From positions 1,411,679 through 1,475,678 of the forward strand of contig JAXGNN010000001.1 of the NCBI GenBank assembly GCA_040767925.1: 64,000 bases of DNA, given 5' to 3'. Origin of the DNA: Christensenellales bacterium (GTDB lineage Bacteria > Bacillota > Clostridia > Christensenellales > CAG-138). A model generated the notes under the pieces. It ran no database searches. It was not told the origin of the DNA and saw nothing but the letters and a program-made list of their open reading frames with translations. Numbering within the stretch: the first letter of the stretch is position 1; every line of letters starts with the position of its first letter. Below are positions 1 to 22,274 of the stretch, one piece after another. The translations under genes were made by a program, and so were the position numbers.

Positions 1-129
1 CGCGTGCTCGACGAGGAGGAGATCTACCTCGACATGACCAACAACATCAGCCCCTGCGTGGTCCGCCCCGTTCAAGGGGAGAGCTTCTATTACCTCATCC
101 TCCCGGTAAGGATCTTTTCGGGAATGTAG
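1..129 (+). CDS. dnaN: DNA polymerase III beta clamp, 3' end (partial)
   Basis: Frame 1 reads RVLDEEEIYLDMTNNISPCVVRPVQGESFYYLILPVRIFSGM*, the typical beta-clamp C-terminus (YLILPVR); recF/gyrB/gyrA nearby. Confidence 0.9.
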   Translation, partial: RVLDEEEIYLDMTNNISPCVVRPVQGESFYYLILPVRIFSGM

Positions 130-131
130 AT

Positions 132-163
132 CAATTGATAATTGACAATGGACAATTGAGAAT
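132..163 (+). repeat. Heptamer tandem array (CAATTGA-type) directly after the dnaN stop
   Basis: CAATTGA TAATTGA CAATGGA CAATTGA GAAT. Confidence 0.9.
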
Positions 164-190
164 CAAGACCGCTGCTGCGGCGGGAGTTTT

Positions 191-216
191 ATAAGGGCGG
201 ATTCCATATCCGCCCG
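191..216 (+). repeat. REP-like palindrome (GTAG-family variant)
   Basis: ATAAGGGCGGATTCCATATCCGCCCG; near-identical to the minus-strand copies at 4261-4286 and 22249-22274. Confidence 0.75.
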
Positions 217-254
217 GGATTCTTTTGATTGAAGATGAACCAATGCTGAAATAA

Positions 255-665
255 TTATTTATCGATATAAAGATCAATATCTATTTCCGTTCCAGTCAAA
301 TAGCAAAATTCAATTATTTCTCTGCCGGGCGCCAGGGCTGGCGTTGGTTCGCCGGCATAAATATGAGGGACCGCTTCCAATATGAATGAAACATCGTATT
401 TTTGCTTGATCTCCCGCAGCAATGAGACTTTTGATTTTAAATTTGAAATTGTAATCATCATTTGATTTTCGGTAATTACATCATAAATTTCGTTTCTGCC
501 ATATTCCCATAAAGCAAAATCATAATGGCCGTTTCCAAATTTGCGCTTGTCGCCGATTTTCCAGGTTTGAGAAGGAATCAATCCCAAAATCTCCGTAATT
601 TCATTCGGATTAAAGATCCCTTTGATTGCGAAATACGTATAACAGCGATTGACTTTCCTTCTCAT
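255..665 (-). CDS. DUF4279-like hypothetical protein, AT-rich
   Basis: 136 aa; YF.I.G..F.P.EIT..LG..P...W..GD start and EIDIDLY end recalled for DUF4279; far more AT-rich than flanking genes. Confidence 0.65.
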   Translation of the reverse strand: MRRKVNRCYTYFAIKGIFNPNEITEILGLIPSQTWKIGDKRKFGNGHYDFALWEYGRNEIYDVITENQMMITISNLKSKVSLLREIKQKYDVSFILEAVPHIYAGEPTPALAPGREIIEFCYLTGTEIDIDLYIDK

Positions 666-740
666 AATTTAATCATCGTCACCGAGAGTGTCCAATCAGC
701 ATAATATTATCTTTCATATCATTCGAAAATAGAGAAATAT

Positions 741-962
741 CTATTCGATTTTATTATCCCTGCGTTCTTCGTTCGCGCGTATGACGGCGCGGCAGGTGAT
801 CCCGGCGGCGCCGAACAGAACCGCCAGCGCGAGGTAAAACAGCCTGTACGCGAGCTGCTCCGCATCATAGGAATTCGGCATCATGAAGTTATACAGCTCC
901 ATGCAGAAAAACAGCCCGCAAAGGATGTTCCAGAAGAGCTTGAGCCTCTTGAGCGCTTTCAT
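741..962 (-). CDS. Small two-TM membrane protein
   Basis: 73 aa, two hydrophobic segments, AGGAGG RBS, TATAAT (minus strand) at 994-999. Confidence 0.65.
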   Translation of the reverse strand: MKALKRLKLFWNILCGLFFCMELYNFMMPNSYDAEQLAYRLFYLALAVLFGAAGITCRAVIRANEERRDNKIE

Positions 963-1300
963 TTCCGCCGCCTCCTGAAAAAAGGGATGGCTTATTATAG
1001 CACGGCTCTCCCTCCCCCGCGGCCTATAAAATCATTTTATGGTAAAAGCGCTCAGTAAATAGTTCCTATCAAATGATTGAATCGCGCGAAGAAAGGGCGT
1101 TCTTTGGCGTTTCTGGCGGACGGTTTTTCCCACGCGGGGCATCGTTAATTTCTATAGGCGTTGCCAAAAGGTATCATTTGATTTGATGGACGGTTTCTCC
1201 CGAAGGAAAAACGACCTTCCATTAAAACTGGAAGATCGTTTTCTCTCCTTGCGGCGCGCGGCCCTCGTCCGTACGGAACGCGCCGCGTCCGGAATGATCT

Positions 1301-3754
1301 TTACTGTTCCTCGCCTTCCGCTTCCTCCTCCTCGTGCGGCAGCAGCGCCACGCCGACCACGCGGCTGTCGTCGTCCACGCGCATGAGGCGTACGCCCTGC
1401 GTGTTTCTGGAGATGAGGCTGATCTGCTCGACCGGCACGCGGATGACGGTGCCGTCGTCGCGGATCATCATGACGTCCTCGTCCCCGCGGCAGATCTTCA
1501 TGCAGGCGAGAGGGCCCGTCTTCTCTGTGATGGCCATGGCGATGACGCCCTTGCCTCCCCTGCCCTGGAGGGGATACTGGTCTTCCGGCGTCCTCTTGCC
1601 CATGCCTCCCTCCGTGATGGAGAGCACGGTCGAGCCCTTCTCGATGAGGTTTACGTCCACGACCTCGTCGCCCTCGTCGAGCAAAATGCTCCTGACGCCC
1701 GTCGCCGTGCGGCCCATGGCGCGCACGTCGTCCTCGTGGAAGCGGATGCACTTGCCGTTTTTCGTGCCCACGAGGAACTCGTCGTTCCCGCGGGAGAGCA
1801 TGACGCCGATGAGCTCGTCCCCCTCGCGAAGGCCGAGCGCGATGATGCCGGTTTTCCTGATGTTGTCGAAGTCGCTCATGGGCGTCTTCTTGATGACGCC
1901 GTAGCGCGTGGCGAGCACGAGGTATTCGCCCTCCTCCTCGCGGCCTACGGGGAACATGGCGGTGATCTTCTCACCGCCCGCGAGCTGCAGCAGGTTCACG
2001 ATGGCCATGCCCTTTGCGGTGCGCCCCGCCTCCGGCAGGTTGTAGCACTTAATCTTGAAGGCGCGGCCGGTGTTCGTAAAGAACATGATGTTGTTGTGCG
2101 TGCTCGTCACGAACAGATGCTCCACGAAGTCCTCCTCGCGCGTCGCCTGCCCGATGATGCCCTTGCCTCCGCGGTTTTGCGCGCGGTAGGTGCCGGGCGT
2201 GATGCGCTTGACATAGCCGAGGTGGGTCATGGTGACGGCCATGTCCTCCTCCTGGATGATGTCGTCAAGGTCGATGTCGTCGCTCGCGGGCGCGATCTCC
2301 GTGCGGCGGGGGTCGGCGTACTTGCGGCGGATTTCCAGGATTTCCGCGCGGATGATGGCGAGGAGCTTGTTTTCGTCCGCCAGCACGCCCTCGTAGTATT
2401 CGACGGTCTTTTTCAGTTCGTCCCTCTCCTCGGTGATCTTGTCCCGCTCGAGACCCGTGAGCCGCGCGAGGCGCATGTCGAGGATCGCCTGCGCCTGCTT
2501 CTCGGAGAGGCCGAAGCGCGCGCAGAGCGCCTCCTTGGCGGCAGGCACGCTCGGGGAGCGCTTGATGAGCTCCACGACCTCGTCGATGTTGTCGAGCGCG
2601 ATGAGAAGGCCCTCGAGGATGTGGAGGCGCTCCTTGGCGCGGTCGAGGTCGTACTGCGTGCGCCGCGTGACGACCTGCCGCTGGAAACGCAGGTAATGAT
2701 GAAGCATTTCCCGCAGGTTCAATACCTTCGGCTCCCCGTCGACGAGGCAGAGCATGATGACGCCGAAGGTATCCTGCATCTGCGTGTGCTTGTAGAGCTG
2801 GTTTAAGATGACGTTGGCGTTGACGTCGCGCTTCAGTTCGACGACGATGCGCATTCCGTGGCGGTCGGTCTCGTCCCGGAGGGCCGCGATGCCCTCGACG
2901 CGCTTTTCGTGCACGAGCTCGGCGATCTTCTCAACAAGGCGCGCCTTGTTGACCTGATAGGGGATCTCCGTCACGACGATGCGGCTCCTGCCGCCGCCCA
3001 TCTCCTCGATTTCGGCCTTTGCGCGCACAATGACGCGCCCGCGCCCCGTGCGGTACGCCTGGCGGATGCCCGCGTTGCCCATGATGGTGGCGGCCGTGGG
3101 GAAGTCCGGGCCGGGAATGTAGGCCATCAGCTCCTCGACGGAAATGTCGCGGTTGTCGATCATGGCGACGTACGCGTCGATCACTTCGCCGAGGTTATGC
3201 GGCGGTATGTTGGTCGCCATGCCCACGGCGATGCCGCCCGAGCCGTTGACGAGGAGGTTCGGGTAGCGGCTGGGGAGCACCGAGGGCTGCATGAGCGTCT
3301 CGTCGAAGTTGGGGTAGAAGTCGACCGTGTTCTTGCCGATGTCCGCCATCATGTCGTCCGCGAGCTTCGAGAGGCGCGCCTCGGTATAGCGCATGGCGGC
3401 GGCGCTGTCCCCGTCGACGGAGCCGAAGTTGCCCTGTCCCTCGACGAGCATATAGCGCGTGTTGAAGTCCTGCGCGAGGCGCACCATGGCGTCGTACACG
3501 GAGGAATCGCCGTGCGGGTGGTATTTGCCCAGCACGTCGCCCACGATGCGCGCGCTCTTGTGGAAGGGCTTGTCGGCGGTGAAGCCCTGCTCGTCCATCG
3601 AGTAGAGGATGCGCCTGTGCACGGGCTTGAGGCCGTCGCGCACGTCGGGCAGCGCGCGGTCGATGATGACGGCCATGGCGTAGGAGATGAAGCTGCGCTT
3701 CATTTCCGCTTCGATGTCTAAGGGGAGTATACGGGATACCTGCTTTTCGTCCAT
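1301..3754 (-). CDS. gyrA: DNA gyrase subunit A
   Basis: [28 protein letters not shown], GyrA-box QNRGGKG; start reset to MDEKQ (ATG 3754, AGAGGT RBS). Confidence 0.98.
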
Positions 3755-3769
3755 TACATTACCTCTGGG

Positions 3770-3801
3770 TAATTGACAATTGACAATTGACAATTGACAA
3801 T
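3770..3801 (+). repeat. Heptamer tandem array (AATTGAC)x4
   Basis: TAATTGA CAATTGA CAATTGA CAATTGA CAAT, between the four-helix-bundle stop and the gyrA RBS. Confidence 0.95.
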
Positions 3802-4160
3802 CAAATTTTGTCCTTGGTTGATTTGACGATCGCCGTGAGCAACCTTACAAGCTCGTTGCAATCCGTCCATATGCCGCTGAATTCCTTATCCGTCAAATAA
3901 TCCGATTCATGGAGCAGCTCAAGCCAATATTCGGTCTCGACGGCCTCTTTGAGCGCGATGTTCATTTTGGAAAGGAAGTCCTTCCCGCTCTGACCCTGCA
4001 CCGCCTCGCGCACGTTCGCGCCGATGCTTGTGCCGCTCCTGACCAATTGCTTTGAGAGCACGAATTCATGCCGGTCTTTTAAAAGGAACTGATAGAGCTT
4101 GATCGTCCGCAGGGCAAACGTCTTGCTTTTCTCGACGATGACGTTGCTTCCTTCCTTCAT
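3801..4160 (-). CDS. Four helix bundle protein (23S rRNA-IVP / TIGR02436-like)
   Basis: KS..FA.R.IKLY..L....[22 protein letters not shown]...QS..DF.SKM.IALKEA.ET.YWLELL; GGAGG RBS before ATG 4160; lower GC than gyrB/gyrA. Confidence 0.92.
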
Positions 4161-4260
4161 GCTTCCTCCCAAATGCTCAATTGACCTTCGCCGGGCTTTT
4201 ATCCGATATGAATCGGTCCCTGCGGCGTCCCGCGTTTTATTGCTCCTTTTGCTTATATTG

Positions 4261-4286
4261 CGGGCCGATATGGAATCGGCCCCTAC
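4261..4286 (-). repeat. REP-like palindrome GTAGGGGCCGATTCCATATCGGCCCG
   Basis: GTAG followed by a GC-rich hairpin; degenerate second copy at 4201-4223. Confidence 0.8.
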
Positions 4287-4306
4287 AAGCCCCGCCGCGT
4301 TCTCCG

Positions 4307-4461
4307 ATTTTCAATTGTCCATTATCAATTGTCAATTGCCCAATCCCGCCGCAGCGGCCGGTCCCCGATTGTCAATTGTCCATTATCAATTGTCAATTGC
4401 CCAATCCCGCCGCAGCGGCCGGTCCCCGATTGTCAATTGTCAATTATCAATTGTCAATTGC
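4307..4461 (-). repeat. About 2.5 tandem copies of a 61-bp unit containing three heptamer arrays
   Basis: Unit CAATCCCGCCGCAGCGGCCGGTCCCCGATTGTCAATTGTCCATTATCAATTGTCAATTGCC at 4341-4401 and 4402-4462, partial copy at 4307-4340; abuts the gyrB stop. Confidence 0.95.
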
Positions 4462-7564
<3,103 letters not shown>

Positions 7565-7730
7565 TCCGCGCCCTTTCTCCTAGGTTACATTTTACCACGG
7601 GAAACACCCGTTTTCAAGAGATTGTTTATTATTATAAGAAGGAAGTACGGAAAAAGCGCCTTTTTGGCCGCGCCGCGCCCCGCTTTTGAAAGCGGTTGAC
7701 ATTTCGCGGGCGGAACATAATAATTAGGCT

Positions 7731-9134
7731 ATGAAAGAATTTCCCGTAAGCGAAAAACTGCGCGCGCTCGCCTTCGCGTTCAAGGCCGCGGGCAAGCCGC
7801 TCTACGCCGTGGGCGGCATGGTGCGAAACCCGCTCTTGGGCCTGCCCGTGAGCGACGCGGACGTCTGCTCCGCCATGACCCCGGACGGGGTCGCGGCGCT
7901 CTGCGCGCGCCTTAACATCGGCTGTTTCCCCAAGGGCGCGGCGTTCGGCACGCTCGACCTTGTCGTCGGCGAGGGCGCGGCGCGGGAGAAGTACGAATAC
8001 GCGTGCTTCCGGAGCGAGCGCTACGCGCGCGGCGGCGCGCACAGGCCGGAGCGCGTGGCCTATTCCGAATCCCTCGCGGAGGACGCCTTCCGCCGCGACT
8101 TCACGGTGAACGCCATCTATCTCGACATCGCGGAGAACCGCCTCGCCGACCCTACGGGCGGCCTCGCCGACCTTGAAAAGAAGCGCATCCGCGCCACCTC
8201 CCCCGACCCCAACGTCATCATGGGGGACGACGCGCTTCGCATCCTCCGCATGGCGCGCTTCGCGGCGCAGCTCAACTTCACGATCGACGAGGCGACCGTC
8301 GCCGCCGCGCGGGCAAACGCCCCGGGCCTTCGCGACATTTCCCCCGAGCGGATCTTCGACGAGCTGCATAAACTTCTCCTCGCGGACGCGCGCTACGGCG
8401 CGCCGAAGGAGAGCCTTTTCTACGGGCTTGAGGCGCTGTACCGCGCCGGCGCGTACGCGGTCTTCCTGCCGGAGCTCGAGGCCTGCGCGGGCGTCGCGCA
8501 GAAGAAACAGTATCACGCCCACGACGTGCTCCGCCACATCCTCCACGCGACGGCGGAGGCGCCGCCCGACCCCGCGATCCGCTTCGCGATGCTCCTGCAC
8601 GACGTCGGCAAGCCCGCGGCGCTCGCCGGCCACGGCAAGATGCACGGGCACGAGCTTCTGGGAGAGGAGATGGCGGATGAAATCCTAAAGCGCCTGCGCG
8701 CGCCCAACGCCCTCCGGCGGGAGGTCGCGACGCTCGTGCGCTGGCATATGTACGATCTCAACGGGGAGGCGCGCGAGTGCAAGGTGAAAAAGCGCTTCGT
8801 GGAGCTCGGGCGGGAGACGGCGCATAAGCTCTGCGCCGTGCGCGAGGCGGACGTCAACGGCAGCGGCCTGTACGAAGGCCCCGTCCGAACGGCCGAAAAA
8901 TGGCGCGAAATCCTCCGGTCGATGGAAAAGGAAAACGCGCCCTTCACCGAGGCGGAGCTCGCCTGTACGGGCGCGGACATCGCCGAGTGGCTCGGCATTC
9001 CGCCCGGCGCGCGCATCGGCGAGATCAAGCGCGCGCTCCTGATGCACTGCGCCTGCAAGCCTTCCGACAACGCGCGGGAGAAACTCAGGCTTCTCGCGCG
9101 CGACATGCACAGGGGAGGAGGCTTTCCCTCATGA
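7731..9134 (+). CDS. cca: CCA-adding tRNA nucleotidyltransferase with HD domain
   Basis: AVGG.VR, D.D, EDAFRRDFTVNA, DALRILR, LLHDVGK. Confidence 0.85.
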   Translation: MKEFPVSEKLRALAFAFKAAGKPLYAVGGMVRNPLLGLPVSDADVCSAMTPDGVAALCARLNIGCFPKGAAFGTLDLVVGEGAAREKYEYACFRSERYARGGAHRPERVAYSESLAEDAFRRDFTVNAIYLDIAENRLADPTGGLADLEKKRIRATSPDPNVIMGDDALRILRMARFAAQLNFTIDEATVAAARANAPGLRDISPERIFDELHKLLLADARYGAPKESLFYGLEALYRAGAYAVFLPELEACAGVAQKKQYHAHDVLRHILHATAEAPPDPAIRFAMLLHDVGKPAALAGHGKMHGHELLGEEMADEILKRLRAPNALRREVATLVRWHMYDLNGEARECKVKKRFVELGRETAHKLCAVREADVNGSGLYEGPVRTAEKWREILRSMEKENAPFTEAELACTGADIAEWLGIPPGARIGEIKRALLMHCACKPSDNAREKLRLLARDMHRGGGFPS

Positions 9135-10456
9135 CGGACACCATTTTCGCCCCGGCGACGCCCTTCGGCGGCGCGATCGCGATCATCCGCGTCAGCGGGC
9201 CGGGGGCGCTCCCCGCGCTGCAGGCGGTTTTTTCGGCAAAAGACGACGCTTTTATTCCCCGGGAAATAAAATACGGCCGTTTGATGGACGAGGGCGAGGC
9301 GATCGACGACGTCATGGCCTGCTTCTTCGAAGGACCGAAGAGCTACACGGGCGAGGACATGGCGGAGCTCTACCTCCACGGCTCGCAGGCGGTCGGCAGG
9401 CGCGCTCTCGCGCTTCTCGCGAAAAAGGGCCTCCGGCCCGCGGAGCCCGGAGAATTCACGAAAAGGGCCTTCCTCAACGGCAAGCTCTCCCTCTCCCGCG
9501 CGGAGGCCGTGATGGACATGATCAATTCCGTCACCGAGCGCGGATCGAAGAGCGCGCTCGAGCAGCTCGAGGGCAGCGTGGGCCGCGCCGTGGGCGCAAT
9601 CGAGGAGGAACTTCTCGACCTCATCGCGGGCGTGGACGCGGCGCTCGACTATCCCGACGAACTGGAGGAGGACACCGTAAGCGGCGCGCCGCCGCGCATT
9701 TTGGAAATCCAAAGAAAGCTCGACGCGTTCATCGTTTCGGGCGAGAAGGGGCGCTATATCCGCGAGGGCGCGCGCGTGGCCATACTCGGGCTGCCCAACG
9801 CGGGCAAATCCTCGCTCTTCAACGCGCTGCTCGGGCGCGAGCGGGCGATCGTCACCCCCGTGCCGGGCACCACGCGCGACACCATCGAGGAGATCCTCTC
9901 CATCGACGGCGTGCCCGTGCGCCTCGTCGACACGGCGGGGCTGCGGGAGGCGTTGGACGAGGCGGAGCGCGTCGGCGTTTCCCGCGCGAAGGACGCGGCT
10001 TCGTTCGCGGACGCGCTCGTCCTGGCGTTCGACGCGGCGGCGGCGCTCACAAACGACGATCTGGAGCTGATCCGATCGACCAAGGGCCGCCCGCGCGTCG
10101 CGGCGCTCTGCAAGGGGGACCTCCCCGCGCGGACCGACGCCGCCGCGCTCCAATCGCACGGCCTTGAAACGGTGACGGTGAGCTCGCTTACGGGCGAGGG
10201 CGTCGACGCGCTCCGGCGCGCGCTCGCCGCGCGCCTCATCCCCGAGGGGGAGAGCGCGCTCATCACCAACGCCCGCCACGTCGCGGCGCTCGTCCGCGCG
10301 CGCGAGGCGCTCGAGAGCGTCGACTTCGCGGACGGCGCGGATTGCGCGGCGGTCATCCTCCACACGGCCCTTTCGGCTTTGGGCGAAATCACGGGCCGCG
10401 ACGTTTCGGAGGACGTGATCGCGCGCATCTTCGAAAAGTTCTGCGTGGGAAAATAG
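9131..10456 (+). CDS. mnmE: tRNA modification GTPase MnmE (TrmE)
   Basis: SYTGED, GLPNAGKSS, PGTTRD, DTAG, C-terminal FCVGK; ATGA overlap with cca. Confidence 0.96.
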   Translation: MTDTIFAPATPFGGAIAIIRVSGPGALPALQAVFSAKDDAFIPREIKYGRLMDEGEAIDDVMACFFEGPKSYTGEDMAELYLHGSQAVGRRALALLAKKGLRPAEPGEFTKRAFLNGKLSLSRAEAVMDMINSVTERGSKSALEQLEGSVGRAVGAIEEELLDLIAGVDAALDYPDELEEDTVSGAPPRILEIQRKLDAFIVSGEKGRYIREGARVAILGLPNAGKSSLFNALLGRERAIVTPVPGTTRDTIEEILSIDGVPVRLVDTAGLREALDEAERVGVSRAKDAASFADALVLAFDAAAALTNDDLELIRSTKGRPRVAALCKGDLPARTDAAALQSHGLETVTVSSLTGEGVDALRRALAARLIPEGESALITNARHVAALVRAREALESVDFADGADCAAVILHTALSALGEITGRDVSEDVIARIFEKFCVGK

Positions 10457-10470
10457 GGACGGGGCGGGGA

Positions 10471-10707
10471 TAATTGACAATTGATAATTGACAATGGGTT
10501 TAGGATGAAACGGCTTCCGCTTGAACGGTGTTCTGCGGGGGCTGCTTTTCATATGGGCGAGGATTCGCATTCCCGTAGGGGCGAATTCCCTCCCAAAACA
10601 AAACGGCCTCCGCCGAACGTCGTTCAAGCGGAGGCTGTTTCTTAGTTCAGTTCATTGTCAATTGTCAATTATCAATTGTCAATTGCCTTAATTGCCTTAA
10701 TTGCCTT
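10471..10707. repeat. Mirror-symmetric intergenic element: heptamer array, hairpin, central hairpin, inverted hairpin, inverted heptamer array, (AATTGCCTT)x3
   Basis: Arrays at 10471-10498 (+) and 10651-10687 (-); hairpins at 10508-10549 and 10601-10640 are approximate reverse complements. Confidence 0.85.
10601..10640. terminator. Intrinsic terminator-like hairpin between convergent mnmE and sortase genes
   Basis: AAACGGCCTCCGC-CGAACGTCGTTCAA-GCGGAGGCTGTTT. Confidence 0.7.
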
Positions 10708-11791
10708 AGTTCGTCGCCTTGAGCAGCATGTACATCCTCTGGTAGCTGTCGCCGGAGCTGTCGGCGCAGGTGACGAGCACCATGATCTTGTCGCTGGAAC
10801 TCATGGAACCGAGCGTCGCGCCCTTGTAGGCCGAGGTGCAGTAGCTCATCATGGTGTCGATCCACTGCTGCTTTTCGGAGCCGGTGCGATAGGACTGCAT
10901 GGCCGCGAACAGCTCGAGGTTCTTGCGCGTGGTGGAGGACTTGACGGTCGAGGTCGTGGTTTCGAAGAAGCCGACAAGTTCCCATTTGGTGGAACCGTTG
11001 TAGCTGATGTTGAACACGCTCGTCCGCGCGCCCGAGCAGTCGCGCTTGCAGTATTCGCAGCTGGACTTGCCGAGCCACGCGTTCTGGACGTGGTGCAGCT
11101 CGTGGAAGCCGAGGTTGGTCGTCTGCTTGAGCGCGGACTTCCTCATGTTGTGGCCGTAGATGACCGCGATTGGGTTGGTGAGGTAGCTCAGCGCGTAGAT
11201 GTAGTTCTTGCTCGAGGAATACGCGTTGTAGTAGAAATTGCCCTTCTTGTCGATGGCGTTGCAATAGATGTAGGTGTTGATGTTGGTGCCGTCGATCTGG
11301 ATGGAGCCCCAGACGTCGGCGGAGGTGCCGGTGTACGACGCGTAGACGAGCTTGCCCGCGGTCGTTCCGCCGGAGCCGCTGCCGCCGCTCTGCATCTTGA
11401 CGTAGGAGGCGTAGATCCAGCCGACGTAGCCGTTATAGCCGACCTTCCAGTACTTGCTGCTCGAGGTGTTGTCGAGGATGGTCACCTGCTTGCCGGAGGG
11501 GATCTGCTTGCAGCCGGAAACCTGGGCGCTGCTCGTGTCCGGGCCAGTGCGGAAGTTGCACTTCGCGGTCGTGACGCCCCATACCGTTGAAGTCTGCGAG
11601 GAGCCGCCGGAGCTGTTTCCGCCGGAGAGGCCGCCGCCCGATGTGGAGGAGCCGCCGGAAGAATCCGAACCGGTGCCTCCGGTAATGGTGAGCCCGTTCA
11701 TCGTGTGCGCCGCGAGCGAGGATGCGGGAACGAGCGCGAAGAGCATCAGGAGCGTCAGCGCAACTGCCAATACGCGAGTGGTTTTTTTCAT
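10706..11791 (-). CDS. Secreted SH3b-domain / class B sortase-like fusion protein
   Basis: Signal peptide (MKKTTRVLAVAL...SLA), Gly/Ser linkers, SH3b (NFRTGP...WKVGYNGYVGWIYASYV), sortase motifs IYGHNM, LVTC and downstream R. Confidence 0.75.
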   Translation of the reverse strand: MKKTTRVLAVALTLLMLFALVPASSLAAHTMNGLTITGGTGSDSSGGSSTSGGGLSGGNSSGGSSQTSTVWGVTTAKCNFRTGPDTSSAQVSGCKQIPSGKQVTILDNTSSSKYWKVGYNGYVGWIYASYVKMQSGGSGSGGTTAGKLVYASYTGTSADVWGSIQIDGTNINTYIYCNAIDKKGNFYYNAYSSSKNYIYALSYLTNPIAVIYGHNMRKSALKQTTNLGFHELHHVQNAWLGKSSCEYCKRDCSGARTSVFNISYNGSTKWELVGFFETTTSTVKSSTTRKNLELFAAMQSYRTGSEKQQWIDTMMSYCTSAYKGATLGSMSSSDKIMVLVTCADSSGDSYQRMYMLLKATN

Positions 11792-11844
11792 ATCTGTCGT
11801 CCTTTCCTTTTGGGAGCAAAGTTTGGGAGCAAAGCTTACTCTGG

Positions 11845-12405
11845 TCAATCCTGACTGCTTCCGGATCCGCCGCCGCCCTCCTTGGGCGCCGCCGCGCCGT
11901 CCTTCTCATCCTCCTCGTCGAACACGAACGCCGCGCGCAGGCGGTCGCCGCCGCCGTGCCCGGAACGCGCCGCTTCCTGCTTTTTGCGCGCTTCCTCGAG
12001 CGCCTTGCGGTCGGTGAGGACGATGTTCACCACGATGAGCGCGAGCATCGCCACGAGGCCGATAGCCCAGAGTACGGTGTTGATCGTGGCGTACTGAGCC
12101 GCCGTCAGGGCAAGCGCTTCGCCGTAGGCCGTGTCCGCGAGGAACTCGAAGGCGCTGTTGGCGAGGATGACGATGGATGCGAACGCGCACAACAGGCGCA
12201 TCACGAGGCGGTAGGTCTCCGGCTTGCACTTGGGGAACTCGTTGTGGATGAGCCGGCCCTTGCCCCGGATCGCCCCCACCATCAGGTAGACGGCGATGAG
12301 GGCCTTGAAGAGCACCATCACCAGGTTGGTTGAGCCTGCGGCGGCCTCCTCTGCCGTTGTGGACGCCGCGTCCATCGCGAGCCATGCGGATGTCAGGTAT
12401 TCCAT
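11845..12405 (-). CDS. Hypothetical membrane protein (3 TM)
   Basis: GGAG RBS before MEYLT; three hydrophobic segments, charged C-terminal tail. Confidence 0.7.
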   Translation of the reverse strand: MEYLTSAWLAMDAASTTAEEAAAGSTNLVMVLFKALIAVYLMVGAIRGKGRLIHNEFPKCKPETYRLVMRLLCAFASIVILANSAFEFLADTAYGEALALTAAQYATINTVLWAIGLVAMLALIVVNIVLTDRKALEEARKKQEAARSGHGGGDRLRAAFVFDEEDEKDGAAAPKEGGGGSGSSQD

Positions 12406-12500
12406 ATTGCTTCTCCGTTTCCAAGTATTGATTATCATACCATTCCGGAGGGCTTAATAAACCCCCCGGCGGCAAAATTCAAACAATGTTAACCAGTCAT

Positions 12501-13898: not shown

Positions 13899-13916
13899 AA
13901 AGCTTAAAATCCTTTC

Positions 13917-15290: not shown

Positions 15291-15437
15291 CAAGACCTCC
15301 ATGAACCGGCGCAATCATTTCCAAAGCAGATTCCAACACGATAATAATAGCATAAAAGTATTCCAAGTGATATAATAATTTCCGCTTTATTGAGCTCAAA
15401 AAGCGGCGAAGCCGCGGTTGAACGCGAAGAGGTATTC

Positions 15438-16547
15438 ATGAGAAAAACGGTTCTGTTCACGGGCGGGGGCTCCGCCGGGCACGTCACGCCCAACGTCGCG
15501 CTCTTCCCCAGGCTTCTCGAAGAGGGCTGCGACATCCATTATATCGGCACGGCCGAGGGCATCGAGCGCGCCATCATCGAGGGGCGCGCGGGCATAACGT
15601 ACCACGCGATCTCCTCGGGGAAGCTCCGGCGCTACTTCTCGTGGAAAAACTTCACGGACCCCTTTCGCGTGCTCGCGGGCGTCGCGCAGGCGGAGAGGAT
15701 CATAAAGAACATCCGGCCCGACGCCGTGTTCAGCAAGGGCGGCTTCGTCAGCGTGCCCGTGGTGGTCGCGGCCAAACGGCTGAAAATCCCCGTCGTCACG
15801 CACGAGTCGGACTACAGCCCGGGCCTCGCCAACCGCATCAACGCGCGCTTCGCGGACAAGGTCTGCGTCACCTTCGAGGATACGCTCAAGCAAGTCGGCG
15901 AAAAGGGAATCCACACGGGCACGCCCATCCGCCCGGAACTCTATTTCGGCAAGCGAGAAAAAGGGCTTTCCTTCCTCGGCTTTTCGGGCGAAAAGCCCGT
16001 GCTGCTCGCCATGGGCGGCAGTCTCGGCGCGGCGGCCGTCAACGAGGCGCTGCGCGGCGCGCTGAGCGCTTTAATCGAAACCTTCGACGTCGTCCACCTC
16101 TGCGGCAAGGATAAATTGGACGAGGCGCTCCTCGACATCAAGGGCTACCGCCAGTTCGCGTACGTCGACCGGGAGCTGCCGGACGTTTTCGCCGCCGTCG
16201 ATCTGATCGTTTCCCGCGCGGGCGCGAACGCCGTGTTCGAGTTCCTCGCGCTCTCGAAGCCCGCGCTCCTGATCCCCTTGCCGCGCAGCGCGAGCCGGGG
16301 CGACCAGATATTGAACGCGGCGTATTTCGCGCGAAAAGGCTATTCGATGATGCTCGAGCAGGAGAACCTCTCCCCCGGGACGCTGCTCGAGGCCGTAAAC
16401 GAACTTTATGCCGGCAGGCAGTCCTATATTTCCACCATGGGCCGCGAGCCGCTCGCCGACGGCACGGAGGAGGTGCTCTGTGTCCTCCGCGGCGTCCTGT
16501 ACGAGGAGCGCAGGCGCAAGGCAAAGGAGAACGCGCGCGGCGATTGA
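15438..16547 (+). CDS. murG: Undecaprenyl-PP-MurNAc-pentapeptide GlcNAc transferase
   Basis: TGGGSAGHV, KGGFVS, GGSLGA, SRAGA, DQILNA. Confidence 0.93.
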   Translation: MRKTVLFTGGGSAGHVTPNVALFPRLLEEGCDIHYIGTAEGIERAIIEGRAGITYHAISSGKLRRYFSWKNFTDPFRVLAGVAQAERIIKNIRPDAVFSKGGFVSVPVVVAAKRLKIPVVTHESDYSPGLANRINARFADKVCVTFEDTLKQVGEKGIHTGTPIRPELYFGKREKGLSFLGFSGEKPVLLAMGGSLGAAAVNEALRGALSALIETFDVVHLCGKDKLDEALLDIKGYRQFAYVDRELPDVFAAVDLIVSRAGANAVFEFLALSKPALLIPLPRSASRGDQILNAAYFARKGYSMMLEQENLSPGTLLEAVNELYAGRQSYISTMGREPLADGTEEVLCVLRGVLYEERRRKAKENARGD

Positions 16548-16632
16548 TTTTTATTTTTCTCGTTTCTTGAAAACATACTAAAACATGCCCGCGCTTTTTG
16601 TGCGGGCATGAATTTCGTTTCGATCGTTTCGA

Positions 16633-17418
16633 TCAGTTTTTCGTAAAATGCAAAATCGCCTCGAGCACGGCGCCGCCGACGGCGCGCGCCTTGTCCGAGA
16701 CCGTGAAGCACGAAGCGGCGTTCCCGCGCGGGTCGATGTCCCCGCTCTTCATGCCGCGTTTGACGATCGCGCCGTCCGGCAGCAGGCCGCGCAGCACCCC
16801 CGCGATCCGGGCCGCGAGGGGCACGCCGTCCACCAGAGCGACAATCTCCCCCGCTTCGACGAAATCCCCGATCTGCTTTTTTCCGGTAAAGACGCCGTCC
16901 GCGGGCGCGCGCAGCAGCCGCTCGGGCCCTTTGCCCGCGATCTCGCCCGGCGTGCCGGTGTTCGCAAGCGGCGAGCCCGCGTAGTAGACCCGCCCGAGGT
17001 CGTGGCCGCGCATGGTTTCAATCGCCGCGTGGCAGTCCGCTCCCGCCGTGAAGCCGGGGCCGAGCGCGACGACGATGGGCGCGTCCGCGATGCGCGTGCC
17101 GGTGTTCCGTTTCGCCATGATGGCGTCGACGAGCGCGTCCGGGCGGAGCTCCTCCCGGCACGCCGCGTCCGGGTCGACGAGGAGCGCGATCGATCCCTCC
17201 CGCGCGAGGCGAAGCGCGTCCGAGGCGCCTTCGGCGAGCTTCGCCGTCACGCCCTCGACCGCCGTTTCCCCGAGCGTCACCGCCTCGGAGAAGGAAACCG
17301 TGCGGCGGATGGCCGTGGGGCGCGGGACGTCGGTCATCACGACCTCCATGCCCGCCAGGAACAGCCGCATGGCGACGCCCGTCGCAAGATCCCCCGCCCC
17401 GCGGATCAAAACGAGCAT
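16633..17418 (-). CDS. yqeB: Selenium-dependent molybdenum hydroxylase system protein YqeB
   Basis: IRGAGDLATG, IRRTVSF, DAIMAKRN.GT, ETMRGHDLGR, GDIDPR, SDKARAVGG. Confidence 0.9.
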   Translation of the reverse strand: MLVLIRGAGDLATGVAMRLFLAGMEVVMTDVPRPTAIRRTVSFSEAVTLGETAVEGVTAKLAEGASDALRLAREGSIALLVDPDAACREELRPDALVDAIMAKRNTGTRIADAPIVVALGPGFTAGADCHAAIETMRGHDLGRVYYAGSPLANTGTPGEIAGKGPERLLRAPADGVFTGKKQIGDFVEAGEIVALVDGVPLAARIAGVLRGLLPDGAIVKRGMKSGDIDPRGNAASCFTVSDKARAVGGAVLEAILHFTKN

Positions 17419-17419
17419 A

Positions 17420-18127
17420 TCATTCCCTCCAGATCGCCTTGACGGCGGATTCGTCCCTGAGCGCCGCGGCGACGACGGTGCCTGCGCCCCAGACAGAAGC
17501 GAAGCGCTCCGCCAAGGCGAGCGCGGCCGCGCAGTCGACCTGGTTGACGAGCACGGTCTTCGCGGGGAAGCGCGCTTTCATCGCTTGTGCGGCGAGCTCG
17601 GGCGTGACGAGGGCGTTGACGTCCGTTTCCAGCGCCCGGGCGTAGAGCTCCGGCCTGTGCGCGGCCTCGGCGATGGGGCGGTTGAAGCCCGACGCGCCGA
17701 CGACCGCGACGACCCGCGCGCCCTCAGGGACGACCGGCTCGTGCGCCGCGTGCGCTTTCAGGGGGAGCCCCTTGGCGCCGTCCGCCTCGACGAGCACGTA
17801 GTCCGCGAGCTCCGCGAGCCGCGGGAAGGCGACCTGCGGCGCGGCGAGCTTGCCGTCCTCGGCGTTTGTCCCCGCGCACACGAGCGGGGAGAGGATCAGC
17901 GCGGCCTCGATCGCCCCCGCGGTGCCCGCCACGAGGGGGATCCCTTCCGGCGGGTACATGCGCGTGGACGTCGAAACGACGACGCGGCCCTTTTTTACGA
18001 GCTCGCGCGCGAGCCGCAGCACGAGGGACGTCTTCCCGCCCGAACCGATGACGGCCGTGATCCCCGGCGCTACGCCAAGCGCCCGAAAGAGCGGAATATC
18101 GCTTGAAAAATCGATGCGTTTCATCAT
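17420..18127 (-). CDS. yqeC: Selenium cofactor biosynthesis protein YqeC
   Basis: GSGGKTS, VSTST, VEADGAKGLPLKAH..HEPV; directly upstream of yqeB. Confidence 0.88.
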   Translation of the reverse strand: MMKRIDFSSDIPLFRALGVAPGITAVIGSGGKTSLVLRLARELVKKGRVVVSTSTRMYPPEGIPLVAGTAGAIEAALILSPLVCAGTNAEDGKLAAPQVAFPRLAELADYVLVEADGAKGLPLKAHAAHEPVVPEGARVVAVVGASGFNRPIAEAAHRPELYARALETDVNALVTPELAAQAMKARFPAKTVLVNQVDCAAALALAERFASVWGAGTVVAAALRDESAVKAIWRE

Positions 18128-18134
18128 AAACCCC

Positions 18135-18158
18135 CGTTATTCCAGAATGAGTATAACA
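18135..18158. promoter_or_regulatory. Candidate ModE-type operator over the yqeC -10 region
   Basis: CGTTAT-N12-ATAACA, one mismatch to a CGTTAT-N12-ATAACG palindrome; minus-strand TTGACA 18172-18177 and TATACT 18150-18155. Confidence 0.5.
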
Positions 18159-18197
18159 CATGCGCCCGCCGTGTCAACCGCGCCGAAAGTATGATAT

Positions 18198-18252
18198 AAT
18201 AACCGCAATAACCGCAATAACCGCAATAACCGCAATAACCGCAAATAACCGC
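18198..18252 (+). repeat. 9-bp tandem repeat (AATAACCGC)x6
   Basis: Five perfect units at 18198-18242, one extra A, sixth unit at 18244-18252. Confidence 0.95.
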
Positions 18253-18286
18253 GAGGATAAGCCGGAGGTGCGTCGTGGAGGGGAAC

Positions 18287-18613
18287 ATGAGCTATAAGCT
18301 GAACCTGCGCCTGTTTCGGGAGGGGAAGTGCTTCGGGCCGGGCATCGCGGAGCTGCTGCGCCGCGTGGAGGGCACGCATTCGCTGCGCGCGGCGGCCGCG
18401 GGGATGGAAATGGCCTATTCGAAGGCCTGGCGCATCATGAAGGAGACCGAGGCCGCGCTGGGCTTCCGCCTCATCCACTCCACGACGGGCGGGCACGGCG
18501 GCGGCGGCGCGGAGCTGACCCCCGAGGGGCGGGACATGCTCCGGAAATACGACGCCATGGTCGCCGCGCTGCACAAAGAGGCGGACAGGCTGCTTTCGGA
18601 ATTATATAACTAA
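18287..18613 (+). CDS. ModE-like winged-helix regulator (DNA-binding domain only)
   Basis: FGPGIAELL....THSLRAAA..M.MAYSKAW...GG.GGGGAELT; no TOBE domain. Confidence 0.85.
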   Translation: MSYKLNLRLFREGKCFGPGIAELLRRVEGTHSLRAAAAGMEMAYSKAWRIMKETEAALGFRLIHSTTGGHGGGGAELTPEGRDMLRKYDAMVAALHKEADRLLSELYN

Positions 18614-18705
18614 CAAGTAAGAGTGAATCGCGCATAACTGCTGCACGAAGGGATTCCACATTGCGGAATCGCTGATTTTATTCGCTTTTTCCGCCGCGGC
18701 GGAAA

Positions 18706-18745
18706 GCGATTCATTATTACTTATTCCCTAATTACTTATTCCCTA
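18706..18745 (-). repeat. Second short-period array after the tatD stop
   Basis: Minus strand TAGGGAA TAAGTAA TTAGGGAA TAAGTAA TAATGAA TCGC (15-bp direct repeat x2). Confidence 0.7.
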
Positions 18746-19513
18746 TTGGCTGATATGAAAGAGCCTCTTCGCGTTCTCCAGCGTGAGGGAGGCGATGCGC
18801 TCGGGATCGTCGTTCCGAAGCGCGGCGAGGCGGCGGACGATGTGGGGGATGTTCGAGGGGTCGTTGCGGCGGCCGCGCACGGGCACGGGCGCGAGGTACG
18901 GGCAGTCCGTTTCGACGAGGAGGCGGTCGTCCGGTACGTATTTGGCGACGTCGAGGAGCCGCCTGGCGTTCTCGAAGGTGACCGCGCCGCCGAGCGCGAT
19001 GTAGAGGCCGAGGTCCAGGCATTCCCGCACCGTCTCGACCGAGCCGGAATAGCAGTGCATCTCGCCCGAAAGGCCGTCCCTGTGCGCGCGAAGGATGTCG
19101 AGGGCGTCCCCGAACGCCTCGCGCACGTGCAGCTGCACGGGGAGGTTCCCTTCCCTCGCCATCTCGAGCTGGCGGATGAACACGCGCTTCTGATCGGGCT
19201 TTTCCGAAAAATCATAGTGGTAGTCGAGGCCGATCTCCCCGAGGGAGACGGCCTTTTCGTCCGCGAGCGCGCGAAAGAGCTTCCCCTCCCAATCCGCGCC
19301 GGGGCTGGAGGCGACGTGCGGGTGGATGCCGTAGGCGGCGTAGATGAAGGGATAGCGCCGCGTCATCTCGCGCGTGACGTCGAACTCGTCCGCCTCGCAG
19401 GCGACGTTGATGACATACGAAAGCCCTTTGCCGGGCAGGGAGGCGATGAGCGCCTCGCGGTCGGAATCGAATTTTTCATCGCACAGATGCGCGTGCGTGT
19501 CGAAGCAGTTCAC
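18743..19513 (-). CDS. tatD: TatD family deoxyribonuclease
   Basis: DTHAHL, GIHPH, GEIGLDY, HVREA, HCYSG, ETDCPYL. Confidence 0.93.
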   Translation of the reverse strand: MNCFDTHAHLCDEKFDSDREALIASLPGKGLSYVINVACEADEFDVTREMTRRYPFIYAAYGIHPHVASSPGADWEGKLFRALADEKAVSLGEIGLDYHYDFSEKPDQKRVFIRQLEMAREGNLPVQLHVREAFGDALDILRAHRDGLSGEMHCYSGSVETVRECLDLGLYIALGGAVTFENARRLLDVAKYVPDDRLLVETDCPYLAPVPVRGRRNDPSNIPHIVRRLAALRNDDPERIASLTLENAKRLFHISQ

Positions 19514-20043
19514 AGCATCAGCTCCATGAGGATTTCGTCATAGTATTGCCCGCGGATGCACATATGCTCCCTGCGCCGCCCGCATTCCGTGAAGCCGAAG
19601 CGGCGGTACAGCGCGAGCGCCCGCGCATTGTCGGCGCGCGCCTCGAGCATGAGCTTATGGTAGCCCCATTCCCGCGCCATGTCGACGGCGAGCGTCATCG
19701 CGACGGAGCCGATGCCGAGATGCCAGCAGCTCTCGCGCAAGGCGATGCCGAAGACGGCGTTGTGCCTGATGCGCTGCCGGGTGGAGAAGGGATTCACGGA
19801 GAACATCCCCGCGATCTCGCTGTCGACCAGCGCGAGGAACGTGCCCTGCCTCGGATTGATGAGCGAGGCCGCGAGCTTCTCAGCCTCCTCCTCGGCGGTG
19901 ACCTGCCAGCCGCTTTCATCGGTGTTGAGGAAATCCGTCTCCCGCCCGACGATTTTGGAAAACGCGATTAAGGCGGCGGAGTCTTCCGGCTCCGCCTCCC
20001 TGACGACGAGCAGTTTTCCGTTTTTGAGGGGGACGCGCTCCAT
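19510..20043 (-). CDS. GNAT family N-acetyltransferase
   Basis: W.LGIG motif A, N.RA..LY.RFGF. Confidence 0.85.
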   Translation of the reverse strand: MERVPLKNGKLLVVREAEPEDSAALIAFSKIVGRETDFLNTDESGWQVTAEEEAEKLAASLINPRQGTFLALVDSEIAGMFSVNPFSTRQRIRHNAVFGIALRESCWHLGIGSVAMTLAVDMAREWGYHKLMLEARADNARALALYRRFGFTECGRRREHMCIRGQYYDEILMELML

Positions 20044-22052
20044 CAGCAGACCTCGCTGCCCCCGGGCATCCCCTCTCCCGTTTCCAACAGGCAGAGCTTT
20101 TCGCCCTCATCCGTTTCCGTGACGGCGGAGAGCAGCATGCCGCAGCTCTCCACGCCGCACATCTTGCGGGGCTTGAGGTTGACGCAGGCGATGAGGCGGC
20201 GGCCGACGAGCTTCTCCGGCTCGGGATACCAGCCGCGGATGCCCGAGAGGATCACGCGGTCCTCTCCCTCGCCCGTGTCGAGCGTGAACTTCAGGAGCTT
20301 GTCGCTCTTGGGCACGAACTCGCAGCTCTTCACGACCGCGACGCGCAGCTTGACCTTCTCAAATTCATCGAACCCGATATAGGAAGGCGCGGCGGGCTTT
20401 TCCTCCGCGGCGGACGCTTCCCCGGCGGGCTCTGCGGGGGTAGCGGCGCACGCCTGCGCCGTCGCTTCCTTTTCGGCCTGCATGGCCTCGAGTTCGGCGA
20501 GCTCCTTCTTAAGGTCGATGCGCGGGAAGAGCGCGTCTCCCTTTGAGACCTTCGCGCATTCGGGCAGCGCGCCCCACTCGCCCGCCCTCTCCCACGCGCC
20601 GAGCGCGCCCGCGGCGCCGATCTGCGAAAAGCCCTTATCGCAGGATTCGGGCATGAAGGGCACGAGCAGCGAGAGCGCGATGCGCAGCACCTCGAGCAGG
20701 TTGTAGAGGACGCTCGCGAGGCGGGGCCTGTCCTCGATGGCTTTGGCGAGCACCCAGGGCGCCGTCTCGTCGATATACTTGTTGGCACGGGAGACGACGC
20801 GGAAGATTTCCTCCAGCGCGGATTGCGTGTTGTAGGAATCCATCTGCTTCTCGTACTTGCCCTTCAGGGCCGAGGCGAGCGCGACGAGCTCCGCGTCCAT
20901 GGGTTCCGCCCGGCGCTCGGGGATGAGCGTTCCCTCAAAGTATTTTTCAACCATCGCGACCGTGCGGGAAAGCAGGTTCCCAAGGTCGTTGGCAAGGTCG
21001 GTATTGATGCGGGAAATCAGAAGCTCGTTGGAGAAGCTGCCGTCCGTGCCGAGCGGGAACTCCCGCATGAGGTAGAAGCGCAGCGCGTCCACGCCGTACC
21101 GGTTGGCGAGGATGACGGGGTCCACCACGTTGCCCTTCGACTTGCTCATCTTGCCGCCGCCTAACAAAAGCCAGCCGTGGCCGAACACCTTTTTGGGGAC
21201 GGGCTCGTCGAGGGACATGAGCATCGCGGGCCAGATGATCGAATGGAAGCGGACGATCTCCTTGCCCACCATGTGCACGTCCGCGGGCCAGTACCGATGA
21301 TAATCGCCATAGCGGTCATTTTCGTAGCCGAGGGCCGTAATGTAGTTGGAGAGCGCGTCGATCCACACGTAGACCACGTGGCCGGGGTCGAAATCGACCG
21401 GCACGCCCCAGGTGAAGGACGTGCGCGACACGCATAAATCCTCGAGGCCGGGGTCGATGAAGTTCTTGACCATCTCGTTGACGCGGGAGGCGGGCTCGAG
21501 GAATTCGCCCGTAAGCAGCAGCGCGCGCACCTTGTTTGCGTATTTCGAGAGGCGGAAGAAATACGCCTCCTCCTCCGCGTAGCGCACCTCGCGCCCGCAG
21601 TCGGGGCACTTGCCCTCGACGAGCTGGCTCTCCGTCCAGAAGCTCTCGCACGGCGTGCAGTACATGCCGGCGTATTTGCCCTTGTAGATATCCCCGTTCT
21701 CATACATCTTCTTGAAGATGCGCTGTATGGCCGAAACGTGGTAATCGTCCGTCGTGCGGATGAAGCGGTCGTTCGAGATGTTCATCAGCTTCCACAGATC
21801 GCGGATGCCGTCCTTCCCGTCCACGATATTGTCCACAAAGCGCTGCGGGGAAACGCCCGCGGCCTTCGCCTTCTCCTCTATCTTCTGGCCGTGCTCGTCG
21901 GTTCCCGTGAGGAACATGACGTCGTAGCCGCACATCCTCTTGTAGCGGGCGATGACGTCGGTGGCGACGGTGCAGTACGTGTGGCCGATGTGCAGCTTGT
22001 CGCTCGGGTAATAGATGGGGGTCGTGATGTAAAAGGTTTTCCGCTCCTGCAT
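20043..22052 (-). CDS. metG: Methionine--tRNA ligase with C-terminal tRNA-binding domain
   Basis: ITTPIYY, HIGH, KMSKS, Zn knuckle, Trbp111-like tail. Confidence 0.97.
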   Translation of the reverse strand: MQERKTFYITTPIYYPSDKLHIGHTYCTVATDVIARYKRMCGYDVMFLTGTDEHGQKIEEKAKAAGVSPQRFVDNIVDGKDGIRDLWKLMNISNDRFIRTTDDYHVSAIQRIFKKMYENGDIYKGKYAGMYCTPCESFWTESQLVEGKCPDCGREVRYAEEEAYFFRLSKYANKVRALLLTGEFLEPASRVNEMVKNFIDPGLEDLCVSRTSFTWGVPVDFDPGHVVYVWIDALSNYITALGYENDRYGDYHRYWPADVHMVGKEIVRFHSIIWPAMLMSLDEPVPKKVFGHGWLLLGGGKMSKSKGNVVDPVILANRYGVDALRFYLMREFPLGTDGSFSNELLISRINTDLANDLGNLLSRTVAMVEKYFEGTLIPERRAEPMDAELVALASALKGKYEKQMDSYNTQSALEEIFRVVSRANKYIDETAPWVLAKAIEDRPRLASVLYNLLEVLRIALSLLVPFMPESCDKGFSQIGAAGALGAWERAGEWGALPECAKVSKGDALFPRIDLKKELAELEAMQAEKEATAQACAATPAEPAGEASAAEEKPAAPSYIGFDEFEKVKLRVAVVKSCEFVPKSDKLLKFTLDTGEGEDRVILSGIRGWYPEPEKLVGRRLIACVNLKPRKMCGVESCGMLLSAVTETDEGEKLCLLETGEGMPGGSEVC

Positions 22053-22160
22053 TCCTAACTCCTTAAGGGGCCTTCCCCTCCTAATTAATAATAGAAAGTG
22101 TACTTTCGCAGGGTGTTTTTGTCAACTGCGGATTGTGGTAGAATAGTCAGGGACGAGGGG

Positions 22161-22195
22161 CAATTGACAATTGGGAATTGACAATTGACAATGAA
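22161..22195 (+). repeat. Heptamer tandem array (CAATTGA-type)
   Basis: CAATTGA CAATTGG GAATTGA CAATTGA CAATGAA. Confidence 0.9.
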
Positions 22196-22248: not shown

Positions 22249-22274
22249 CGGGCGGATATGGAATCCGCCCCTAC
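22249..22274 (-). repeat. REP-like palindrome GTAGGGGCGGATTCCATATCCGCCCG
   Basis: Same family as 191-216 and 4261-4286. Confidence 0.8.

Follow-up and report, generated by a model that had tools for sequence, protein, structure and literature searches.

The window analysed here is a 64-kb stretch of a Christensenellales genome (assembly GCA_040767925.1, contig JAXGNN010000001.1) that lies at the dnaA region of a 2.7-Mb genome with 60% GC. Short tandem arrays of the heptamer CAATTGA stand at its gene boundaries, and several of them flank a four-helix-bundle gene between gyrB and gyrA. We favor, with slightly better than even confidence, the interpretation that the arrays are arms of a heptamer-armed four-helix cassette, found either solo or as pairs that enclose no gene; the cassette itself would be mobile and would insert at stop codons. 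This interpretation draws on the insertion of the cassette at a stop codon, the inverted order of its arms, a polarity and hairpin tails common to the copies, constraints on length and unit position, and co-occurrence with the gene.

Comparison across the genus shows that the cassette was inserted at the gyrB stop codon. The gyrB-gyrA spacer measures 707 nt here, whereas 12 congeners have 12-21 nt at this place (a further congener was truncated, and two lacked the gyrB locus). Read from the gyrB stop, the insert consists of three array-hairpin copies, a repetitive extragenic palindrome (REP), the four-helix gene with its own Shine-Dalgarno sequence, and an inverted array that stands directly ahead of the native gyrA Shine-Dalgarno sequence. 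Its parts are as follows.

4429..4460, minus strand: left arm, 1 nt past the gyrB stop (TAG 4462-4464)
4368..4399, minus strand: second left-arm copy, in a 61-nt tandem unit
4307..4338, minus strand: third left-arm copy, in a 61-nt tandem unit made of the array and a small hairpin
4262..4286, minus strand: GTAG-tagged REP-like hairpin within the cassette
3801..4160, minus strand: four-helix-bundle gene, 119 aa, TIGR02436/PF05635 by profile search
3770..3801, plus strand: right arm, in antisense orientation relative to the transcript of gyrB, the four-helix gene and gyrA; lies between the four-helix stop (3801-3803, touching) and the gyrA Shine-Dalgarno sequence

The four-helix protein scores 108.7 bits against TIGR02436 (cut-off 24) and 95.2 bits against PF05635 (cut-off 33.8), and the GC content of its gene is about 53%, compared with 61-67% in gyrA and gyrB. 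Its closest solved structure is 2RLD (E 5e-37), which has five chains, and the protein is predicted to be five-membered. Its isoelectric point is 7.8, and the median among homologues is 8.9. The first and last arms of the cassette are predicted to pair over their full length (-42.6 kcal/mol) with the gene looped out, and the purine-rich arm comes first on the transcript. The preliminary description of this DNA had listed the reversed copy and the gyrB copies correctly but as separate items. Together they make up both arms of a single inserted cassette; the shared hairpin and REP tails behind solo arrays had also been missed. A second four-helix gene in the genome (L021, C1:491340-491651, where C1 and C2 denote contigs) lacks heptamer arms. 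It follows a tRNA-like stretch and is preceded by GTGAAAT units with small GC hairpins, and several relatives are arranged alike.

The solo arrays repeat the polarity and position of the cassette arm throughout the genome. We used an equal-weight periodic scan to find arrays and our own gene caller to define 2361 genes. The scan gave 74 CAATTGA arrays, sited at gene boundaries, of which the 66 scoring at least 17 were kept (8 weaker ones were dropped) and formed 52 loci. Forty-eight of these loci begin within ±22 nt of a same-strand stop, where random intergenic placement would give 5.5% (p = 5e-56), and one adjoins an opposite-strand stop. Behind the array at each of the 48 stands a hairpin tail from a small shared set. 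Four loci depart from the rule, namely the cassette's right arm, the corresponding arm of an inverted pair without a gene at C1:1355235-1355505, a degenerate lone antisense copy and a copy in a gene leader at 22161; two of the four are thus right arms. Terminal inverted repeats occur in the cassette and in the gene-less pair and are absent from solo arms. We infer that the solo arrays derive from the left arm of the cassette. The copies are concentrated near the origin and dnaA, with 38 of the 46 on C1 lying within 17% of the contig.

Within the window, a three-core pattern has 21 matches, versus 0 in each of 100 shuffles. The preliminary description had named six loci in the window, each reading CAATTGA in the mRNA sense except for the copy after the four-helix gene. 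All six exist with that orientation, and the genome-wide scan bears out a non-random orientation and position. The six loci hold eight arrays, and the one at 10471 has four cores. Outside the cassette, the window contains the following arrays.

132..163, plus strand: five-core array starting 2 nt past the dnaN stop (TAG 127-129)
10471..10495, plus strand: four-core array, 14 nt past the mnmE stop (10454-10456)
10654..10685, minus strand: five-core array past the stop of an SH3-domain gene
10681..10708, minus strand: three copies of a 9-nt unit (stop codon plus start of the first heptamer), probably from slippage at the junction
22161..22192, plus strand: five-core array in a methyltransferase-gene leader, 16 nt past an extended -10-like element (22136-22144, read from sequence)

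The arrays often form part of the gene end itself. The stop codon of the gene is the TGA of unit 1, 2 or 3 in 21 of the 48 stop-linked arrays, and a TAA opening unit 1 serves in 4 more. Because the array supplies the stop codon, these proteins end in ...IDN or ...LTIDN. This overlap is what one would expect if the arrays were selected as a read-through guard, placing stops in all three frames after a gene, as had been proposed earlier. Three units would be enough for that purpose, but the arrays retain five cores. No frame of the GAATGCA-type arms found elsewhere contains a stop, the units of the CAATTCA/CAATGCA family also lack stops, and one copy sits in a leader. A read-through guard is therefore barely credible to us.

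The length and sequence of the arrays are constrained. Strict runs of 3, 4, 5 and 6 cores number 13, 18, 36 and 3 in this genome, so that the mode is five cores, or 32 nt. Mismatch rates at unit positions 1 to 7 are 33, 2, 2, 3, 10, 2 and 3% under equal-weight detection, and the consensus is N-AAT-K-GA repeated five times. The 36 five-core copies comprise 29 variants, which argues that they are not fresh copies of one master; for comparison, gyrB differs from that of the sister genome G010 at 26% of third codon positions. The repeated pattern appears to be selected or renewed by something, and recognition by a protein would account for this. The position-specific conservation and the five-core length support a sequence-specific binding site indirectly.

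Neutral slippage predicts a different spectrum. Under this explanation, repeats would be seeded where a gene end resembles the unit and filtered by selection against coding insertions. Unit number does vary between strains: contigs from two runs of a related strain (X2 and X5) lack 7 nt, one heptamer unit, at 133 after dnaN. The 9-nt triplication at 10681-10708 and joints that use the gene's own last codons are also of the expected kind, and polymerase slippage has been proposed for heptamers in work cited in PMC4692102. The lengths, however, peak at five cores with a sharp cap and no decay, tails are shared, polarity is 48 to 1, and the mismatch rates of the unit positions span a more than tenfold range. 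Slippage is already largely refuted by these spectra of length and position, and we consider it very unlikely.

Three features of the unit that had been offered as functional look incidental, because other families with identical grammar lack them. These are the CAATTG palindrome, the TTGACA resembling a -35 element and the three-frame stops. The common variants TAATTGA, AAATTGA and CAATGGA disrupt the palindrome, and a TAGTGAA/TAGCGAA family that obeys the same rule in the same genome has neither the palindrome nor TTGACA. A related proposal is that each array is a sigma-70-type promoter (TTGACA-17-GACAAT, positions 4-32) from which a small hairpin RNA or the following gene is transcribed. 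The 17-nt spacing is suitable, and of the seven arrays in 1-11000 six were called promoter-like with 9-10 of 12 matches, five of them ending at the last base of the array. Conservation is highest at the first TTGACA junction (C in 33/36, versus 22/36 and 16/36). The -10 hexamer shows no improvement toward a promoter: it begins with G in 36/36 copies, and T occurs at its third place, position 29, in 0/36, compared with 10/36 and 15/36 internally. With other families of the same grammar lacking TTGACA, a promoter function is highly improbable.

Hairpins stand behind the arrays, at a distance of about 20 nt or less. The tails of the 66 arrays comprise 20 from a family of terminator-like hairpins, 25 with a small GC hairpin (17 of these with a REP) and 21 others. 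The tails in the window, other than the cassette hairpin listed above, are these.

169..215, plus strand: tail B, a small GC hairpin (169-183) and a REP-like hairpin (195-215), after the dnaN array
10505..10552, plus strand: tail A, terminator-like hairpin of mnmE
10600..10640, minus strand: tail A, terminator-like hairpin of the SH3-domain gene
22250..22271, minus strand: REP-like hairpin in the methyltransferase-gene leader

The GTAG-tagged short palindrome of the REP-like hairpins has 51 matches in the genome and is a feature of the tail, not of the heptamer array. Lone REP-like hairpins also occur, and at C2:113439 and C2:336254 the GTAG tag is the stop codon of the upstream gene. One further idea is that an array may act as a spacer that keeps a REP off the stop and so avoids ribosome stalling.

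The association with REPs suggests that the array might be a passenger, a module of a mosaic like the bacterial interspersed mosaic elements (BIMEs) moved by a REP-associated tyrosine transposase (RAYT), with the four-helix link being secondary. An array lies directly upstream of 26 of the 53 REP-like hairpins, array-hairpin-REP units are amplified in tandem, REPs and arrays occupy nearly identical sets of congeners, and lone REPs too sit on stops. At the prfA-sua5 junction of congener G006, an array and a REP are accompanied by a RAYT-like gene (69.4 bits, below the cut-off of 80). On the other side, only 21 of the 66 tails include a REP-like hairpin and 45 do not, this genome yielded no Y1 transposase, and the armed cassette recurs across phyla with arm sequences of its own each time. 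We regard the passenger explanation as quite unlikely.

We compared the cassette with 60 homologous four-helix loci, using the 47 that were full-length (13 cut or partial loci were dropped). Each of the 47 is flanked by a heptamer arm on one side or both. The arm is upstream in 44/47, downstream in 38/47 and present as a matching inverted pair in 28/47, while control windows gave 36/467. Among the 45 loci examined for its position, the upstream arm begins at the preceding stop in 22 of the 29 with a four-core arm. Arm units vary widely (CAATTGA, GAATTGA, GAATGCA, GAATTAA, TAGTGAA) around a common pattern, N-A-R-Y-K-N-R. Across these many unit sequences, the 72 arms are distributed as 13, 13, 32, 8 and 6 with 3, 4, 5, 6 and 7 or more cores. 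In four Oscillospiraceae-type loci (L033, L034, L035 and L040), an armed four-helix gene apparently follows a gyrB-like gene end, as read from the flanks.

The present genome (G000) also contains a second heptamer family, TAGTGAA/TAGCGAA/TAACGAA. Its arrays have four to five cores, read in the sense direction after stops and are followed by hairpins. Of 11 matches here that are not CAATTGA, 8 are at sense stops. The unit of this family forms the arms of a four-helix cassette at the prfA-sua5 junction of congeners G005, G007 and G013. Inserts at this junction differ among sister species: a four-helix cassette, an array with REP and RAYT-like gene, or an array and REP only. The loci are as follows.

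C1:1157178, C1:1289710, C1:694616, C2:179519, C2:180091, C2:497643: second-family loci in this genome
L248 (G006), L250-L252 (G005, G013, G007) and C1:1372245 (this genome): prfA-sua5 loci

The distribution of arrays follows that of the gene in part. The CAATTGA pattern occurs in 6 of the 16 genomes of the genus, with 65, 88, 34, 6, 3 and 1 matches (88 in G010). The second family occurs in the identical six, four of which have an armed four-helix gene. Among 300 genomes of the phylum, at least 10 pattern matches were found in 20 of the 53 with a four-helix gene and in 8 of the 247 without one, although kin are not independent in this count. The correlation between arrays and four-helix genes that the preliminary description set as a check is thus present. 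In a gyrB tree, the four array-bearing genomes that have the gyrB locus fall on one weakly supported side (72/80; G005 and G013 are missing), so that a single origin of the arrays in the genus is possible. We also examined 40 stretches from two congeners (30 from G010 and 10 from G013) containing 55 arrays. Forty-five of these follow a sense gene end, and the orthologue in the present genome has a full array in 11 of the 45 cases, with remnants in some others. The leader array at 22161 is present at the equivalent place in both congeners. In viral contigs, 72 arrays came from 119 loci, with a sense frame ending nearby in 33 and an antisense frame in 14; this test is crude and is not used as support.

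Several results weigh against a mobile cassette as the source of the arrays. No four-helix gene was found in G010, which has the most arrays and is 92% complete, nor in G006. Solo arrays are not near four-helix genes (0/40, 0/90 and 0/119 loci; control 29/29). Some orthologues carry decayed remnants, so that single gene ends may have lost as well as gained arrays. Contigs from X2 and X5 have a 1-nt deletion in the four-helix gene at 4121, which would break the frame unless a second indel restores it. Unit sequence follows the protein tree loosely (13 changes versus 19.9 when shuffled), with one clean clade, composed of kin. We found no match to RAYT (PF01797; Y1 transposase) in this genome, which is 93% complete, and no reverse transcriptase match (PF00078) here or in G006, G007, G010 and G013. 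Seven distant genomes have 13 of 56 arrays starting at a sense stop and 2 at an antisense stop by crude open reading frame (ORF) calls. Finally, GGGAATC-type runs peak at four cores (45/121, with 19 at five cores), although the periodic length mode is still 28-35 nt.

The last two results rule out both five cores as a universal length and the strict stop rule as a universal one; the strict rule is specific to the genus. Many of the arrays in distant genomes are gene-less facing pairs. Contig C1 of one of our comparison genomes, G245, has many such pairs 50-100 nt apart (for example 853252/853336 and 953064/953165), and an arm that recurs often there reads TTGACA-17-TACAAT, close to a consensus promoter. 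The absence of PF00078 matches from the five genomes named above gives no support to a route through reverse transcriptase or a diversity-generating retroelement. No transposase lies inside the cassette; the search did not extend to DDE transposases in the rest of the genome, and the congeners have diverged too far to show any target-site duplication. Among the joints listed for contigs of four runs on window positions 1-12000 and four on a 19.9-kb stretch, none cleanly bypasses the cassette or an array.

Regardless of how they arose, the arrays might now be a signal in the 3' untranslated region (UTR) adopted by the host, either a binding site or an unstructured spacer between stop and terminator that sets mRNA stability or ribosome release. 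The strong position-specific conservation agrees with this. When every stop is scored for an array, the distribution has two modes: 23 genes reach the perfect score, and the trough holds 2. The arrays persist in G010 alongside no detected cassette gene, and the leader copy is common to three species. Genes with arrays have a higher codon-model score (0.335 vs 0.304), and the array alone has a weak predicted fold (-2.6 kcal/mol) with hairpins close behind. Yet 34 of the 45 array genes from G010 and G013 lack a full array at the orthologue here, 10 of the 15 congeners lack the family, and the genes concerned (dnaN, gyrB, mnmE, prfA, the SH3 protein) share no evident function. We judge a host-adopted signal to be unlikely.

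A heptamer-armed cassette could generate the arrays as follows. A promoterless cassette would be expressed only after insertion in the sense direction, downstream of a stop and ahead of the following gene or terminator, and this would fix its polarity. The same process would copy arm-plus-hairpin units to other gene ends, in some cases with the joint within the final codons, where the array comes to supply the stop. A protein reading single-stranded RNA or DNA would maintain the five-core length and the fixed A-A-T-x-G-A positions, and most simply the reader would be the cassette's own pentamer, with one core per subunit. The arms of the cassette transcript would form a 32-bp stem that RNase III, whose gene is present in the genome, could cut, as in 23S rRNA intervening sequences.

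A more specific proposal, which we consider possible but less likely than not, is that the PF05635/TIGR02436 pentamer is a sequence-specific reader of heptamer arrays, one core per subunit, and that the two together form a transposase-free mobile system landing on stops. If the pentamer reads the arrays, some fifty mRNA ends in this lineage bear its site, and base-pairing in trans between them and the antisense right arm would be possible (predicted median duplex with solo arrays, -37 kcal/mol). Such reading would explain both the abundance of heptamer repeats in bacteria and the role of the intervening-sequence protein. Polar heptamer repeats have been described but not explained, and PF05635 is a solved protein without a function. 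The present genome is unusually clear in this respect. The unit is AT-rich against a background of 60% GC and cannot form a quadruplex, yet the arrays follow the grammar of the Xanthomonas repeats, with a sharp five-core cap and a conservation profile by unit position. Congeners have empty sites for the cassette, and sister species carry a cassette armed with the second family. This turns a vague class into one open to a direct binding and specificity-swap experiment. If the four-helix protein does not bind, the arrays would be a lineage-specific repeat of a known kind.

The genes flanking the arrays in the window include dnaN, gyrA, gyrB, mnmE and the TIGR02436/PF05635 gene. The label "sortase" that the preliminary description gave to the gene upstream of the 10654 array was not confirmed, as Pfam returned only an SH3_3 domain and a PDB search gave no useful match. 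The YGHNM and LVTC motifs of this protein resemble those of class B sortases. In positions 1-7564, recF-gyrB-gyrA lie on the minus strand toward dnaA-dnaN and not downstream of them; in the usual order, they follow dnaA-dnaN. Between dnaN and gyrA, a low-GC stretch at 255-1200 (39-48%) contains a small ORF as well as a DUF4279 gene, most of which is skipped by a joint in run X5 from 319 to 689. At 18198-18252, six copies of a 9-nt unit (AATAACCGC) lie between divergent genes.

We compared the arrays to repeat systems described in other bacteria. The Xanthomonas and Nostoc repeats GGGAATC and GGGGA(C/T)T have a published orientation rule and a four-unit preference, which were attributed to quadruplexes (Rehm et al. 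2015, PMC4692102). As described there, they are intergenic heptamers whose purine-rich strand coincides with the coding strand when they lie at most 50 nt after a stop and is reversed when they precede a start. They also show a preference for about four units, inverted pairs, no functional gene class and an unresolved function. The present arrays resemble them in kind but differ in that 48/52 are of the stop type, in their five-core cap, in their clustering near dnaA and in their link to a four-helix gene. The CAATTGA consensus unit has a single G and cannot form a quadruplex, so the arrays do not belong to that subfamily. The TAACTGA direct repeats of Beggiatoaceae, cyanobacteria and Bacteroidetes (MacGregor 2015, PMC4679880) share the unit type, three-frame stops and overlap with gene ends, with forward polarity and 2-6 copies. 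An RNA-binding protein was proposed for them, with S1, Csp and CsrA as candidates. Unlike the arrays here, most TAACTGA sets end just before a start codon. The text of that paper does not contain the terms "four helix" and "IVS".

The four-helix protein has its own known relatives. The ORF-bearing 23S rRNA intervening sequences (S23p/PF05635; the Coxiella intervening sequence, PMC4990558) encode the same protein family, loop out the ORF by a terminal stem, and are described as patchy, horizontally acquired and prone to ORF decay. The cassette differs from them in its place in an mRNA junction, in its predicted heptamer-built stem and in its roughly fifty solo arms. An Rfam search of 1-23000 gave no match, and the cassette lies not within a 23S rRNA gene but between gyrB and gyrA. 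The Avd protein of diversity-generating retroelements is a homologous pentameric four-helix barrel that binds RNA (bioRxiv 10.1101/2023.10.23.563531; PMC10053308). The crevices between its protomers, all five of which take part, hold RNA bases that have flipped out (bioRxiv 10.1101/2023.10.23.563531). In these reports, Avd binds a stem-loop and not a tandem repeat, and the present genome has no match to the PF00078 reverse transcriptase. The available text of PMC3936711 and PMC5524665 names the four-helix family in passing only. A literature search, with subscription papers and supplements outside its coverage, returned no paper linking heptamer repeats to this family.

The last comparison is with GTAG-type REPs, BIME-like mosaics and RAYTs. 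REP-like hairpins are co-amplified in tandem with the array here. A heptamer module is not a REP feature, the arrays mostly stand without a REP, and searches of this genome with NF047646 and PF01797 found no RAYT. The arrays are strongly non-random and belong to the described class of polar heptamer repeats.

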